Source: Candidatus Nanoarchaeia archaeon (GTDB lineage: Archaea; Nanobdellota; Nanobdellia; Woesearchaeales; SKIA01). Taken from it: 64,000 bases of DNA. Under the pieces are notes generated by a model. The model searched no databases, was not told where the DNA came from, and worked only from the letters and a program-made list of their open reading frames with translations. Every line of letters starts with the position of its first letter. Within the stretch, counting starts at the first letter, position 1. A program made the position numbers and the translations under genes. Shown piece after piece: positions 14,694-52,860 of this stretch. The stretch is taken from positions 12,347 through 76,346 of the forward strand of contig JANQNG010000053.1 in NCBI GenBank assembly GCA_028279685.1, given 5' to 3'.

Positions 14694-14835
14694 ATTAACA
14701 TCACCTTCTTGAATCTAATGTTTTTTTGGGAAAGCACTCATTCTAAATCATTGTAAAAAGTAACTCACCCCTTATGGTAAGAACTTTACGCTCTAAATTG
14801 TTTATAAATATTGCGCTTGTAGAAGATATAGATAA

Positions 14836-14924
14836 TGGACCAAGGGGGATTCGAACCCCCGACCTACGGCTCTCCTTCCAGATGATAGAAGGCCGTCGCC
14901 CTATCCAGACTAGGCCACTGGTCC
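14836..14924 (-). tRNA. tRNA-Arg(TCT) with ~14-nt anticodon-loop intron
   Basis: Manual fold: acceptor GGACCAG/TTGGTCC, D-arm GCCT/GGGC, 5-bp anticodon stem ACGGC/GCCGT enclosing CT-TCT-A plus 14-nt insert, AGGTC variable loop, T-arm GGGGG-TTCGAAT-CCCCC, discriminator A, no encoded CCA. Confidence 0.65.
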
Positions 14925-14948
14925 ATAGGGTTTAAAAATGCAAGTCTT

Positions 14949-43224: not shown

Positions 43225-44661
43225 ATGAGATCGATAATCCTGAGTTTAATCTTTTTGATTCTGACATTGCCTTTAGGGTTTGCCCTCTGGGAAGAGCCTA
43301 CATCATCGAATTTGATGACTGCTGGACAAGAATTTGAGAGCAATGGCTTCACCGCAGTGGTTTTATCTGTCGATGAAGACAATGCTGATGTTCAAGTATT
43401 AGGACCAAGTGGAAAAATTGTGGGGAGAGGGATTATAACAATGGAACAAGACCTCACTATAGAAGAGGAAGTAAGGATCAAAGCTGAAGAATTCGTTTAT
43501 CGATATGAAAAATATCATGTTCTTTTCTCTTTGGAATCATGGATTGATGGAGAGATACTTGATGTTCATGCGCCTGAACAGTTTGAGTTGGATAGAAAAT
43601 ATGATGTTGAAATAGATATTAGAAATACAGGTCCTGCGGATGCTTCTTATGTTATGATGCTTGAGTATGATGATACTGAACTCTGGAGTGACGCTACATC
43701 ACGTCGTATATCTCTCGGACAGAACGAAAGAGGAACTATATCTTTTGAAATAAGACCGATCAAAGATATTACTAAGCCTATCGATTTCGTTCTTATTTCT
43801 GCAGATGAAGAATTAGGAAGAAAAAGTATATCAGGATTCTCTTTTGTGGAATCCCTTATCGCAATCAAAGAAGTTGTGTTTTCAGAAATTATGCAAACCA
43901 ACGGAGAATATCCGGTCACTATTGTCGTGGAGAATAATGATGAAGTTACAAAATCAATGAGTATTAAGCTTATTGGTGAATATTTTATCCTTAATACACT
44001 TGCGGGACCTGGAGACTTATTGAATGTCAATGTTCCTGCACATTCAACAGGAGAAGTTACGTTCTACGTTAAACCATTAAACAAAGGCATGCAGAACCTT
44101 AATGTTAAGCTTTATGATGATAAATTATTTGCAGAAGAATCATTAGTTGTGGTTGATGTGCGTGACACGAATGTTGGATATATAGGAACGATTACCATTC
44201 CAGAGAATATGGTCAAGGGAGAAGAAAATGAAATTACTATTGTTGTACACAATGCAGGGGCGGAGGAGAGTGAACTTGTTGTGAAAATCATAGCAGCTTC
44301 ACTTGATTATGATGTTTCTGAAAAGATGATGATTCTTGAGGGACAGTCTTCTAAGGAAACTTCTTTTACCGTGAAGCCTTTGCTTACTGGTGAGATTCCT
44401 TTTCAGATAGTATTATATCGTAATGATGAGAAGATTGATACAGAAAGTGCTGTTATTAACGTGAATAAAGGAACAACAACATCACCATCAATACCAACTG
44501 AAGATGATGAAGAATCTGAACTAGATATTGTTGTTTGTCCAGAACCTGAGCCTTGCAGCACAGGATTCAAGAAGGCATTTATCACTTCATTAGTTGTTAA
44601 TTTTCTTCTGTTGATTATCATTGGTATCAATCATTTAAGAAAAATGGGAATTACACTCTAG
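43225..44661 (+). CDS. CARDB-repeat surface protein with C-terminal TM anchor
   Basis: Signal peptide; several about-100-aa repeats with NxG..A motifs (DIRNTGPADAS, VVHNAGAEES); ends STGFKKAFITSLVVNFLLLIIIGINHLRK. Confidence 0.6.
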   Translation: MRSIILSLIFLILTLPLGFALWEEPTSSNLMTAGQEFESNGFTAVVLSVDEDNADVQVLGPSGKIVGRGIITMEQDLTIEEEVRIKAEEFVYRYEKYHVLFSLESWIDGEILDVHAPEQFELDRKYDVEIDIRNTGPADASYVMMLEYDDTELWSDATSRRISLGQNERGTISFEIRPIKDITKPIDFVLISADEELGRKSISGFSFVESLIAIKEVVFSEIMQTNGEYPVTIVVENNDEVTKSMSIKLIGEYFILNTLAGPGDLLNVNVPAHSTGEVTFYVKPLNKGMQNLNVKLYDDKLFAEESLVVVDVRDTNVGYIGTITIPENMVKGEENEITIVVHNAGAEESELVVKIIAASLDYDVSEKMMILEGQSSKETSFTVKPLLTGEIPFQIVLYRNDEKIDTESAVINVNKGTTTSPSIPTEDDEESELDIVVCPEPEPCSTGFKKAFITSLVVNFLLLIIIGINHLRKMGITL

Positions 44662-45581
44662 AACGTGTAGTGTTTTTCTTCAAAATTTTTTATTTTTCCT
44701 TTTTCGACAGGAATTCCTTGTTCCTGCAATAATCTCTTCTTCTTAAGTATTGGTTTTCCAGTGGTTTTTCCCATAAAACCTCCTAAAGAACCATCAATCT
44801 TGACAACAAGATGGCAGGGAATGATAGGTGCATAAGGATTATTTCTCATCACTTGTCCTATTGCTTGATATGCTTTTGTGTTTAATGCGAGAGCAAGATC
44901 TTTGTATGTTGTGACTTTTTTCTTAGGCACAGAAAGTAATTTGAGAAATACTTTGTTGCGTAAGGTTTTGCCTAAGAGTTCATCTTTTAGTATCTTCAAG
45001 AAAACAAAAATGCTTTTCTTGTCTTTGTTGATAATACTGTCTTTATAGCGTTTTGCTATGGCAAGCAGATTCTCCTTGTCAAATAGAATAGCTCTCTTTG
45101 TTAAAGCCTGAAAAACAGTATCTTTGATAAGATAGGAACAGAACTGAGTTACGTTTTTAACTTTTTTAGAATATCTGCATCGCTCAAAGTCAATCATCAC
45201 AGCTTCATATTTAGCATCAATAATGATGTGCTTATACGGATTAGTCATCTCGAATTTATTGATATGGAGGTCGTCCATCAGTGCGCATTGATCAAGAATC
45301 TGGAAAAGGACATTAAGCATCTGTCGTTTTTTTGCTTCCCCTTGCAGGAATTGCTCGATAGTTAATCCATCAATAAATTCCATAATAATCTGATCTTTAC
45401 TACTGCTGATCAGTCTTGGACCAATATGATGCTTATTAAGAATCTTCAGGAATTTTGATTCATTATACAGCGTATTAGTTGAGCTTCTCGGATTATGGGT
45501 TTTGATAATGACTTTCCTCCCATTTTGCTCTTCAAGCTTTACAATCCCTCGTTTTCCTTTTGCGTAGAAGTTGTCTATCAT
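44658..45581 (-). CDS. fusion protein: Bud32/RIO-like small kinase fold + MGMT (O6-alkylguanine-DNA alkyltransferase) DNA-binding domain
   Basis: N-terminal about 200 aa resemble small protein kinases (GKRGIVKL, IIMEFIDG, IDFE) with divergent catalytic loop; C-terminal about 90 aa match MGMT (AYQAIGQVMRNNPYAPIIPCHLVV...GGFMG). Confidence 0.6.
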   Translation of the reverse strand: MIDNFYAKGKRGIVKLEEQNGRKVIIKTHNPRSSTNTLYNESKFLKILNKHHIGPRLISSSKDQIIMEFIDGLTIEQFLQGEAKKRQMLNVLFQILDQCALMDDLHINKFEMTNPYKHIIIDAKYEAVMIDFERCRYSKKVKNVTQFCSYLIKDTVFQALTKRAILFDKENLLAIAKRYKDSIINKDKKSIFVFLKILKDELLGKTLRNKVFLKLLSVPKKKVTTYKDLALALNTKAYQAIGQVMRNNPYAPIIPCHLVVKIDGSLGGFMGKTTGKPILKKKRLLQEQGIPVEKGKIKNFEEKHYTF

Positions 45582-45611: not shown

Positions 45612-46496
45612 TTATTCAAGATAAGAATCAATCACATTTGCTTTAACAGACACACCAAATATTTTTGCTCCAGGGACAGGAACATACGGTGGAATACGCT
45701 TCTTTTTCTTTTGTTGCTCACTACAAGAAAAAGAAAATGATAACTCTCCGATAAGGGATATAATGTTCCCAAGATCTGTTTTAATAGTCGCAACATCGTT
45801 TTCAATGGTAAGTGTGGCTTCAATTTCTTTATACGTAATTCCTCTATATCTGATATCAAAACTTCTTACATCTTGTTTAATAGTATCATTATTTTCTTCT
45901 TGTAGATCATCATACCAGTGAAGACAAGAGAGAAAAGCAGACATCATCGTATGAGATTCAGGAAGGATAGCATTGCTTGAGTCTATTTCGCAATAATATT
46001 CCTTTTTTTCTATTGATCCTATCTGATTAAGGATAGTTCCTTTATCGTAGTCAAAGTATTCAGAAAATACCCATTTCAAATTGTCTGTTGGAAGACCATT
46101 GGCTTCTGCAAATGTAATCTCCTCTTCTGATGCATCAGTACCTATAAGCGAACGTCTAGCAATAATTGAATTAACGGTTTCTCCATTAACAAGATATTCC
46201 TTAATATTTAACGCAATGCGATAGATTTGTAAGAAAGTAGCATCTATTTGTCCATGCATAACTAATGCATCTCCCTCCTGATAAATCTCGAAAAATGTTT
46301 CCTTATCATCAATAGTGTCAAAAACGAACTTTCTTGTTACATTATAATCTATTCTTGCAGAATCTGCTGTGTGAAAGCATGGAGAATCAGAAAAAGCAAA
46401 TTTTGGATCATCTGCATTTGCAGTAGAAATAATAAATAGAGGAGCTGCTGTTAGGAAAAGGCTTTTCACGAGTTTCCCGAGGCTCATTACAATCAC
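45612..46496 (-). CDS. secreted hypothetical protein
   Basis: Signal peptide (FLTAAPLFIISTANA); 294 aa, no family recognised; start overlaps upstream gene stop by 4 nt. Confidence 0.4.
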   Translation of the reverse strand: MIVMSLGKLVKSLFLTAAPLFIISTANADDPKFAFSDSPCFHTADSARIDYNVTRKFVFDTIDDKETFFEIYQEGDALVMHGQIDATFLQIYRIALNIKEYLVNGETVNSIIARRSLIGTDASEEEITFAEANGLPTDNLKWVFSEYFDYDKGTILNQIGSIEKKEYYCEIDSSNAILPESHTMMSAFLSCLHWYDDLQEENNDTIKQDVRSFDIRYRGITYKEIEATLTIENDVATIKTDLGNIISLIGELSFSFSCSEQQKKKKRIPPYVPVPGAKIFGVSVKANVIDSYLE

Positions 46497-47032
46497 TTGC
46501 TTACTTCATACACATACAACGTTTCGTATGCGAGTTTTTGTTTTCCCACCTCTTTTGATACATATTGATGCTCTTTGAGCAATTTGTCGATTTTTTTCTT
46601 TTTGCTTAATGAACTGAATAATAACAGTATTTTTCCTTTTTTATCCAAGTGATTTCTGGCATCTTTTAAGAACTTTTCTATGATTTCATAGCCTTCAGGG
46701 CCTCCATCAAGAGCTATATCTTTGACGTCAGCATCATTTGGAAGATAAGGGGGGTTAAAAATGATCAAATTGAAAGTGCCTTTGATATTGCTAAACAAAT
46801 CAGATTGTACTATGGTGATAGAAGGATCATTAATAGTTTTATGAAGGTGCTCTATTACTTTCGGATTGATATCGGCAAGTAGAACACGCTCAAACTTCTT
46901 TTTAGCTTCTTTACCGAGTATGCCTGAGCCAGTTCCTAAGTCAAGTGCTTGTTTCCCTTCATAATCACCAATAAAAGAAAGTAAAAAATAGGAATCTTCT
47001 CTAGGCTCATAGATGTTATCACTAATGATCAT
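46493..47032 (-). CDS. N5-glutamine methyltransferase, Mtq2/HemK-like
   Basis: SAM motif LDLGTGSGI, ADINP and NPPY catalytic motif; 179 aa as expected for Mtq2. Confidence 0.75.
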   Translation of the reverse strand: MIISDNIYEPREDSYFLLSFIGDYEGKQALDLGTGSGILGKEAKKKFERVLLADINPKVIEHLHKTINDPSITIVQSDLFSNIKGTFNLIIFNPPYLPNDADVKDIALDGGPEGYEIIEKFLKDARNHLDKKGKILLLFSSLSKKKKIDKLLKEHQYVSKEVGKQKLAYETLYVYEVSK

Positions 47033-51750: not shown

Positions 51751-52860
51751 TCAATGATCAATCTTATATCGTAGAATGGCAGCAATCTTACCTATATCTT
51801 TCAATTGAACCCCTTCTCGAGTCTCAACACTAATAATTTCTACTTTAGTACTCATTGCTTCTGCTTTCTCTTCAATATCAGCAACGGTAGCATCGTCGAT
51901 AATTTCAGAAATCAATACCGTATCAGCGGCACCCATTTTGATAGCTCGCAACACCTCTTCTTGACCATAAGCAGCTAATCCTGTATCTTTTGAAAGATGC
52001 TCGAAGAACTGATGCATCAATCGCTTCTCATGCATTACTTCTTCTTTAGCTAATACATCATCGCATTTATCCAGTAATTCCTGCAATCCAAAATCCCCTG
52101 TATACCCTAAATCCTTCACAGCAATAATTTTTTGTTTAAGCTCATTGGTTAATCCACTTTTTTCTATGAATTCCTCTTTGCTTTTTCCAGGGCCTCCAAC
52201 AAGAATTCCTTTGATCTCATTCTTTCCAAGAAATTCATCTTTAGCATGTTCTGCCATACGCTTATAGAATTCTAGTGCAGCACCATCTCGTAATCGCTCA
52301 AAACGCGCAGCAGATTGTCCTCCTGTTTTGTGTTTTCCTGGAACCGCAGATCCTGATTTTACAAGAGGTATGATTGTTTTTCCTTTAAGCAATGCAAGAT
52401 TCCCTTCACGTTTATCAAGTACAATCATCCCAAACATAATATCGTCATCAAGCATATCTTGCAGAACATCAAGTACAAAGACTTTATCACAACGATATAA
52501 TCGCTGTTTCATAGGTAGAGGAGGTTCAATACTCCATACTTTGTAATCCTGCTGACCTTCGCGTTCAGCTACATTACCAGAAAACGCTGCTAATCCATGG
52601 GGAGGAGTCTTCGGATATGTTTTGAGATGCTGAATCATTTTCTCTAACGCGGTAATTACATTATCTCTTGTGGATTTGCTCTTAATATTAGTGGCGGTAC
52701 CTTGCTCCTGGAAGAGATGCTCAGTAATCTTATTGAGCTCATAACCTTGAGGCACATATACGGTAACAAGCTCGGTATGCCTGCCTCGATAACCTTCAAG
52801 CTCTTTTACGAACTGCTTGAGCTTGAATTTCTCTTTTGCAGTCATGGTGTGTTCTGTCAT
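51751..52860 (-). CDS. prf1: peptide chain release factor aRF1
   Basis: NIKS codon-recognition motif and GGQ motif (KTGGQSAARFERLR). Confidence 0.92.
   Translation of the reverse strand: MTEHTMTAKEKFKLKQFVKELEGYRGRHTELVTVYVPQGYELNKITEHLFQEQGTATNIKSKSTRDNVITALEKMIQHLKTYPKTPPHGLAAFSGNVAEREGQQDYKVWSIEPPLPMKQRLYRCDKVFVLDVLQDMLDDDIMFGMIVLDKREGNLALLKGKTIIPLVKSGSAVPGKHKTGGQSAARFERLRDGAALEFYKRMAEHAKDEFLGKNEIKGILVGGPGKSKEEFIEKSGLTNELKQKIIAVKDLGYTGDFGLQELLDKCDDVLAKEEVMHEKRLMHQFFEHLSKDTGLAAYGQEEVLRAIKMGAADTVLISEIIDDATVADIEEKAEAMSTKVEIISVETREGVQLKDIGKIAAILRYKIDH

Follow-up and report, generated by a model that had tools for sequence, protein, structure and literature searches.

An ArkI-like kinase fused to a short MGMT domain with an altered active site in a Nanoarchaeia genome

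The window analysed here is a stretch of 64,000 nucleotides from Candidatus Nanoarchaeia archaeon (assembly GCA_028279685.1, contig JANQNG010000053.1, positions 12,347 to 76,346). Our subject is one of its genes, which encodes a protein of 307 amino acids (aa): a predicted RNA kinase of the ArkI family occupies its N-terminal part, and a short form of MGMT, the O6-alkylguanine-DNA alkyltransferase, its C-terminal part. We lean, with modest confidence, towards the view that this is an active RNA kinase, presumably a tRNA kinase, which was fused to an impaired alkyltransferase domain by the joining of operon genes, and that the two halves act independently. Two adjacent genes of an operon of DPANN archaea, which comprises a methyltransferase (Mtq2), an ArkI-like kinase and a short MGMT, have been joined end to end. 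The N-terminal 200 aa would carry out ATP-dependent phosphorylation of the 2'-OH of RNA; in the C-terminal 100 aa, the replacement of the Arg of the PCHR motif and of the Glu that activates the Cys would have abolished or slowed alkyl transfer, leaving a module that may bind nucleic acids or lesions, or may be vestigial. The halves would be co-expressed through the fusion and would not form a signalling device.

The gene and its two domains are located as follows:

44658..45581, minus strand: complete coding sequence of the 307-aa fusion protein, from ATG to stop (stop codon 44658-44660), from the listing of open reading frames (ORFs) and the sequence.
44979..45581, minus strand: predicted ArkI-family (COG2112/AQ578) RNA-kinase domain, aa 1-201, from phmmer and profile searches of the PDB, Foldseek, and a self-built hidden Markov model (HMM) called KIN.
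44661..44969, minus strand: MGMT domain of the short form, aa 205-307, comprising the C-terminal domain alone, from PF01035, TIGR00589 and alignments.

That a kinase fold and an MGMT domain are fused in one real polypeptide is confirmed, far above chance. The ORF listing of the window gives a continuous frame, with neither stop nor frameshift between the two halves; the same gene is called on a Logan contig, and the identical protein is recorded twice, once on the NCBI contig and once in the independent Logan assembly of SRR20820740. An earlier, sequence-only reading of this DNA had described one fusion protein, which holds, and had named separate genes as the outcome that would speak against it. 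The motifs it quoted are all present: NNPYAPIIPCHLVV, KAYQAIG, GGFMG and KKKRLLQEQG, then IIMEFIDG, IDFE and the altered catalytic loop LHINKFEMTNPYKH. It is highly improbable that separate genes were merged by the assembly or by a sequencing indel: in several relatives the MGMT frame does overlap the kinase stop in another frame, and one indel could fuse them, but here the junction is seamless and in frame, two assemblies give the same protein, and 29 other fusions are known, some of them in independent samples. The AlphaFold 2 (AF2) model, with a predicted local distance difference test (pLDDT) score of 93.7 and a predicted template modelling (pTM) score of 0.88 overall, is also confident across the junction (pLDDT 91-92).

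The N-terminal half is assigned to the ArkI family, with the catalytic residues of the family intact, because profile E-values, Foldseek scores and mapped catalytic residues agree. In the HMM search proposed in the sequence-only reading, the kinase models of Pfam match below threshold (E about 1e-3), but a phmmer search of the PDB with the single sequence is significant (8yv5 at E=7e-12, and 7vnx, the TkArkI structure, at E=2.7e-7). A profile built from 76 family members reaches G. acetivorans Ark1 at 3.4e-26 and TkArkI at 1.9e-14, the next kinase family being RAD53 at 1.6e-4, and the KIN model matches the kinase domain at 1.9e-73. On the structural side, the best PDB entries for the AF2 model are 8yv4 and 8yv5, which Foldseek labels "G. 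acetivorans RNA kinase Ark1", with a target-normalised template modelling score (TM) of 0.83-0.84, followed by 0.71 for 7vnx; Src-type kinases score about 0.5. Our literature search found no paper on 8yv4/8yv5.

ArkI, discovered in 2022, is an archaeal RNA kinase (COG2112/AQ578) that writes 2'-phosphouridine at position 47 of tRNA (Up47), a mark tied to thermotolerance (PMC9095486). It carries HGQ instead of HRD and DFE instead of DFG, its long C-terminal helix bears a YKR motif, and it does without subdomains VIII and X, the first of which is the peptide-binding one (PMC9095486). Mutagenesis of TkArkI shows that K32, G33, K51, E65, H130, Q132, K137, D149, N160 and T162 matter, and its nucleotide pocket binds guanosine and deoxyguanosine tightly (PMC9095486). 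In the window kinase the corresponding landmarks are:

45546..45563, minus strand: P-loop AKGKRG, aa 7-12, by alignment to 7vnx; K8 and G9 correspond to K32 and G33 of TkArkI, and G9 is nearly invariant in the family.
45228..45263, minus strand: non-canonical catalytic loop INKFEMTNPYKH, aa 107-118, by alignment to TkArkI.
45183..45191, minus strand: DFE, the metal-binding triplet, aa 131-133; D131 is the equivalent of D149 in TkArkI, and D131, F132 and E133 are invariant in the family.
45042..45047, minus strand: Y179-K180, the YK of the ArkI YKR motif, on the long C-terminal helix, by family alignment.

The model of the window kinase shows a bilobal fold like that of eukaryotic protein kinases, in which subdomains VIII and X are missing; it includes helices at 169-184 and 188-203. 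In lacking a peptide-binding subdomain it resembles ArkI and Ark1. IIMEFIDG is the hinge, and IDFE the equivalent of DFG. The TkArkI residues K32, G33, K51, E65, K137, D149, N160 and T162 are all kept, as K8, G9, K27, E41, K117, D131, N143 and T145, so that the K-G of the P-loop, the Lys-Glu pair, the catalytic-loop K-H, DFE, N..T and the YK of YKR all match; the 17 columns that are invariant across the 76 family members are likewise all intact. Y179 is invariant in that family and K180 at least 90% conserved, the third residue of the motif being Asp in the window protein and not Arg. The catalytic loop also departs from TkArkI, and the sequence-only reading was right to call its HGD altered: H130 and Q132 of the HGQ are replaced by K109 and E111, giving K-F-E. 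K109, E111, P115 and K117 are invariant in the 76 members of the DPANN family, and G. acetivorans Ark1 has the same K-x-E, as QKEE. By homology, the kinase would most likely use ATP to phosphorylate the 2'-OH of RNA, U47 of tRNA being the best guess for the site.

The same earlier reading had likened this half to Bud32 and RIO-type mini-kinases, an assignment that we reject. Like Bud32/PRPK and RIO, the window kinase is a small member of the atypical-kinase superfamily without the APE subdomain; however, its TM to human PRPK (Bud32) is about 0.55, against 0.84 for Ark1, the Bud32 models of NCBIfam fall far below their cutoffs (NF011463, 16.5 bits against 188; TIGR03724, 13.5 against 125), HGD is absent, and neither family contributes a chain to the 60 PDB matches listed for the family profile. 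A role in a defence system was also considered and rejected, the fusion protein giving E=6e-4 (16 bits) against PD-T4-6 and E=0.016 against MADS6.

We turn to the C-terminal half, whose resemblance to O6-alkylguanine-DNA alkyltransferase had been claimed from the sequence and is fully supported by HMM searches: Pfam DNA_binding_1 (PF01035) matches aa 208-287 with E=1.2e-17 and 63.9 bits, for a gathering score of 27, and NCBIfam TIGR00589 (ogt) gives 53.6 bits, for a cutoff of 46.4. Solved MGMT structures are matched by phmmer, for example 1mgt at E=2.5e-8. Like MGMT, Ogt and the C-terminal part of Ada, the domain has the equivalents of Tyr114, Gly131, Asn137, Pro-Cys-His and Lys165 (human numbering); unlike them it has no N-terminal domain. 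The Methyltransf_1N-type domain finds no match in Pfam or NCBIfam, and the MGMT match begins at aa 205, right after the kinase. Human MGMT is stabilised by this N-terminal domain, according to a review (PMC10814553).

The absence is common to a whole family of short MGMTs, whose stand-alone members, of about 100-108 aa and named "MGMT family" proteins, are the nearest relatives of the window domain and come from DPANN archaea and bacteria of the candidate phyla radiation (CPR). Length and loop structure are alike in the window domain and in these proteins, which differ from it in being separate genes and catalytically canonical; identity between the two does not exceed 62% in the alignment tables, or 68% in BLASTP local alignments. 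Among the named carriers are the CPR bacteria Beckwithbacteria, Woesebacteria and Collierbacteria, and the family thus spans CPR bacteria and DPANN archaea.

To read the active site we aligned 120 stand-alone members with human MGMT. Y114, G131, N137, H146, K165 and E172 are invariant in the 120, and C145 and R147 are each present in 119; the family is predicted to retain the full alkyl-transfer machinery. Two further positions differ from the human protein: at Tyr158, 117 of the 120 have Phe, and at Arg128, the arginine finger, 71 have Arg and 49 Gln. The window domain has these family states, Phe and Gln, and keeps Tyr114, Asn137 and Lys165 as Tyr226, Asn248 and Lys281. Three positions in it deserve to be located:

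44865..44867, minus strand: Gln239, at the arginine-finger position (human Arg128), from the 120-member alignment.
44808..44819, minus strand: active-site PCHL, aa 255-258, with Cys256 and His257 kept and Leu258 (codon CTT) for the Arg of PCHR.
44718..44720, minus strand: Gln288 (codon CAA), where human MGMT has Glu172, from alignments.

The sequence-only reading had noted the first of these changes, from the motif KAYQAIG; Gln239 is indeed there, but it is not distinctive, and as a special feature of this protein it is discarded, 41% of the family carrying Gln. That reading was also correct on the retained Cys, which is Cys256, and on the Leu for the Arg of PCHR, which is Leu258; it did not mention Gln288.

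The last two changes set the window copy apart from all its relatives. Its active-site motif is IPCHLV, where the general MGMT/Ogt motif is (I/V)PCHR(V/I). R147 is present in 119 of 120 stand-alone MGMTs, in 32 of 32 that are linked to the kinase in an operon, and in 29 of 29 other fused ones; the corresponding counts for E172 are 120/120, 31/31 of those aligned, and 28/29. All 32 operon-linked domains are canonical at C145, H146 and R147 together. Among about 180 relatives, only the window protein has Leu at R147 and Gln at E172, and each of the two codons, CTT and CAA, is one nucleotide away from a canonical codon. Two other fusions show variations of their own: one has PCYR, that is, Tyr for His146, with Ser at Asn137 (P0270), and another Asp for Glu172 (P0282).

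We take the pattern as a targeted change at the active site rather than general decay, because 27 of the 30 columns conserved at 95% or more are intact in the window domain, the exceptions being G109K, R147L and E172Q; decay or pseudogenisation of the MGMT half is rejected on the same count. Glu172 and His146 have been proposed to deprotonate Cys145, Glu172 being the Glu of a Glu-His-water-Cys relay (PMC2632678). In the window protein, alkyl transfer to Cys256 is thus probably lost or greatly slowed, to judge from these residues. Rafferty and colleagues are reported to have found in 1994 that E172Q inactivates human MGMT.

One alternative is a fully bifunctional enzyme, whose MGMT half would still repair O6-alkylguanine in DNA while the kinase does separate work, the fusion merely sparing a promoter and a start site in a streamlined genome. 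We consider this unlikely, although it has points in its favour: Cys256, His257, Tyr226, Asn248 and Lys281 are retained together with the 27 conserved columns, all the other fusions look catalytically canonical, and no second MGMT is found within the 64-kb window. It has to reckon with the fact that R147 and E172 are essentially invariant in the relatives, and, Glu172 being part of the proposed relay (PMC2632678), two hits on the same network are unlikely to be neutral.

The origin of the fusion can be sought in the genomes of relatives. The kinase has relatives in 353 species-representative genomes, and the counts below refer to the best 80 loci of these 353, whose six-frame ORFs were searched with self-built HMMs; flanks of 1.5 kb or more on both sides are available for only 66 of the 80, and the counts of neighbours are therefore lower bounds. 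Almost all of these loci are labelled as archaea of the Woesearchaeota/Nanoarchaeia type. In at least 59 of the 80, the kinase has a same-strand HemK2/MTQ2 methyltransferase upstream, and in 23 the two form a single ORF; in at least 31 it has a same-strand short MGMT downstream, which is directly adjacent in 21 and fused in 1; both partners are present in at least 28. Where kinase and MGMT are adjacent, the stop of the one sometimes overlaps the start of the other. Beyond this trio the sole neighbour of comparable recurrence is TFB, convergent and downstream in 34 of the 80 loci, every other neighbour being found in at most 16.

The window keeps the order of the operon, with Mtq2 first, then an ORF of 294 aa, then the fusion gene:

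46493..47032, minus strand: methyltransferase of the HemK2/MTQ2 family, conserved as the operon partner upstream of the kinase (TIGR00537, 138 bits for a cutoff of 87; NF011529, 165 for 162).
45612..46496, minus strand: ORF of 294 aa with a hydrophobic N-terminus, placed between the fusion gene and Mtq2, whose stop overlaps the start of the ORF (ORF listing).

A gene at the place of the 294-aa ORF (45612-46496) is absent from most related loci, and the ORF itself has no match in Pfam, NCBIfam or PADLOC. The Mtq2 protein (46496-47032) matches the PADLOC model of mad2, the methyltransferase of the MADS system, with E=2e-20; we judge this to be generic methyltransferase similarity because the HemK2/MTQ2 models exceed their curated cutoffs. 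In 16 of the 80 loci, Mtq2 is preceded on its strand by a conserved ORF of about 152-155 aa without Pfam match (for example L018 252-707, L083 432-893 and L085 253-720); neither this ORF nor TFB is found at the corresponding place in the window. The Ark1 genes of Archaeoglobales (G. acetivorans, Archaeoglobus) have unrelated neighbours, with no Mtq2 or MGMT among them, and synteny is uninformative on orthology there.

On the evidence of this gene order, the fusion derives from the end-to-end joining of adjacent operon genes. The sequence-only reading had presented it as novel; a wider search shows that it is not the only one of its kind. A word-indexed search yielded 5 fusions, and an exhaustive phmmer scan of 1.84 billion representatives many more, for a collection of 30 fusion sequences: 22 consist of kinase and MGMT, and 8 have Mtq2 in addition, at the N-terminus. 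Beside them, 140 kinase-only proteins and 92 proteins made of Mtq2 and kinase were collected. A unique fusion is thus rejected, and the fusions are real, since two of them, P0002 and P0004, were each found again in independent samples, Mtq2 lying directly upstream.

A single ancestral fusion is rejected too. For 19 of the 30 fused kinases, the closest other kinase domain is an unfused one, parsimony on a neighbour-joining tree of the kinases requires at least 15 state changes, in which a fusion is made or broken, and the first five fused MGMT domains all have a stand-alone MGMT as a closer relative than the domain of any other fusion.

Fusions of Mtq2, a release-factor methyltransferase, with a C-terminal ArkI-like kinase account for 92 of the 261 kinase-bearing proteins and for the 23 loci mentioned above, among them L006, L007, L029, L030, L038, L039 and L041. 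NCBI names the Mtq2-kinase proteins only "HemK2/MTQ2 family protein methyltransferase", and the fusions with MGMT are annotated as MGMT or HemK only, the kinase being left unnamed.

The translation-related company of these genes suggests a further possibility, namely that the MGMT domain is directed at RNA: it would repair or recognise O6-alkylguanine in tRNA or rRNA, or serve as an additional tRNA-binding domain, in concert with Mtq2 and the kinase. Mtq2, ribosomal proteins L1 and L10, aRF1, a CCA-adding enzyme and aIF5B are all neighbours, and the C-terminal domain is strongly basic (21 Lys and Arg residues, 6 Asp and Glu). The high Lys content may, however, merely reflect a genome of 37% GC. 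In human MGMT the C-alpha of Gly131 clashes with the 2'-OH of ribose, which blocks the repair of RNA (PMC10814553), and the equivalent Gly is invariant in the short family and kept in the window domain; moreover, CPR bacteria have the same short MGMT family as a stand-alone gene next to fpg, a DNA repair gene. Taken together, these points make an RNA-directed MGMT very improbable. The stand-alone short MGMT that ranks closest to the window domain (P0121, at L082 5001-5327) lies in such a bacterial-type context, with no kinase, its neighbours being Fpg, F-type ATP synthase subunits a, c and b, and LytR_C.

Do the two halves cooperate? Probably they act independently. The absence of a kinase around that closest stand-alone MGMT points this way, and so does a feature of one fusion: the linkers between kinase and MGMT are mostly of 0-8 aa, with the exception of P0247, in which 87 aa of low-complexity, Pro/Ser-rich sequence separate the domains, an arrangement that fits independent domains.

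The opposite position was taken by the sequence-only reading, which saw in the architecture a DNA-damage sensor or signalling protein. In such a protein the MGMT-like domain would bind alkylated guanine, or Cys256 would be slowly alkylated, and this would regulate or target the kinase. The idea proceeds by analogy with the methyl-Cys switch of Ada and with lesion binding by the alkyltransferase-like proteins (ATLs). A Cys that is kept while its relay is disabled would suit a slow or binding-only module, the pTM of 0.88 may indicate a defined geometry between the domains, the fusion is recurrent, and the binding of guanosine and deoxyguanosine by TkArkI offers a loose thematic link. The claim is nevertheless unsupported, and we regard it as quite improbable. 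Members of the ArkI family are RNA kinases from which subdomain VIII, the one for peptide substrates, is missing; in 29 of the 30 fusions the MGMT is canonical and apparently catalytic, and the architecture therefore needs no sensor-type domain; the arginine finger is absent from the window protein, as it commonly is in the family; and no regulatory partner or output domain is seen nearby.

The comparison with ATLs can be made directly. These proteins have Trp or Ala for the acceptor Cys and retain both the arginine finger and the lesion pocket. Like S. pombe Atl1 and E. coli YbaZ, the window domain consists of the MGMT C-terminal domain only and, if it is inactive, would presumably bind lesions; unlike them it retains the Cys and has Gln at the arginine finger. 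An assignment to the ATLs is rejected, given the Cys and a match to Atl1 (3gva) of E=0.032, compared with 2.5e-8 for a true MGMT. In other MGMT fusions, such as Ada, the MGMT-EndoV of Ferroplasma and those of AlkA type, MGMT is joined to a DNA repair enzyme or to a transcription factor; in the window protein it is joined to a predicted RNA kinase, and in some relatives to the Mtq2 methyltransferase as well.

Several observations weigh against our preferred reading, that of an active RNA kinase joined to an impaired alkyltransferase with the halves independent. On the kinase side, H130 and Q132 both matter in TkArkI, and their replacement in the K-x-E form could mean that substrate or chemistry differ. 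The host organisms are mostly non-thermophiles, as the window's own host probably is, and Up47 is chiefly a mark of thermophiles and thermostability, though it is documented in mesophiles too. On the MGMT side, the retained Cys and His, with the equivalents of Tyr114, Asn137 and Lys165, make residual alkyl transfer possible. As for independence, the pTM of the model hints at a fixed arrangement of the domains, which would fit cooperation, and repeated fusion together with conserved gene order may reflect a real functional coupling.

A broader form of coupling can be imagined, in which Mtq2, the ArkI-like kinase and the short MGMT would together constitute a translation-linked unit of DPANN archaea, for alkylation response or nucleic-acid modification, with physical cooperation between the MGMT-type domain and the RNA kinase. 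The window protein would then be an ATL-like derivative, its Cys kept and its activating relay lost, and would serve as a sensor of lesions or alkylation that gates or targets RNA phosphorylation. We think this improbable.

The remaining features of the window concern its translation genes, its RNA genes and some large proteins. About 5 kb from the Mtq2 gene lies aRF1 (eRF1 domains 1-3; 51754-52860, minus strand), a known substrate of Mtq2, and a diphthine-synthase-like methylase is also near, with the CCA-adding enzyme, aIF5B and ribosomal proteins L1 and L10, in a neighbourhood rich in translation genes. The only tRNA of the window is a 91-nt gene at 14835-14925 (minus strand), which, once introns are allowed, is a tRNA-Arg(TCT) with an intron of 14 nt (Rfam tRNA, 56.5 bits); the "tRNA-Pyl(cta)" obtained at the same place is an artefact of the default settings of ARAGORN, which are blind to introns. 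Its variable loop, AGGUC, has U47-C48, which is compatible with a U47 target and uninformative. An eraser of the KptA/Tpt1 type is not among the 20 window ORFs scanned, a scan that does not exhaust the window. There is a second atypical kinase, of the ABC1/UbiB family, at 1096-2490 on the minus strand (PF03109, E=1e-53). A giant ORF of 7290 aa (21309-43181, plus strand) has a signal-like N-terminus and a C-terminal membrane anchor, and contains a subtilase domain (Peptidase_S8) and numerous Big_9, He_PIG and cadherin-like repeats; after it comes a CARDB-domain membrane protein of 478 aa (43225-44661).

Both domains of the fusion come from known families, and their combination seems to be undescribed, as does the coupling of Mtq2 with ArkI: neither the architecture nor the Mtq2-ArkI-MGMT operon is mentioned in the ArkI paper (PMC9095486), and no description was found in the literature searched. 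The coupling with Mtq2 may be more informative on the role of the kinase than the fusion with MGMT.

What emerges is a large ArkI-like family, present in at least 353 species-level genomes, that sits in a conserved operon, is very often fused to Mtq2 and repeatedly to an MGMT without N-terminal domain, and goes unseen under current public annotation. If the linkage is functional, it would be an unexplored tie between RNA phosphorylation, methylation of translation factors and alkylation repair in ultra-small archaea, and one would have to ask what role ArkI-type kinases play in organisms that are not thermophiles. If it is merely operonic, the window protein would be a natural experiment, an MGMT domain deprived of exactly the PCHR Arg and the relay Glu, with its Cys kept. 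And should the alkylation-response module of DPANN archaea prove true, the MGMT fold and the ArkI family would gain a role beyond DNA repair and the thermostabilisation of tRNA.

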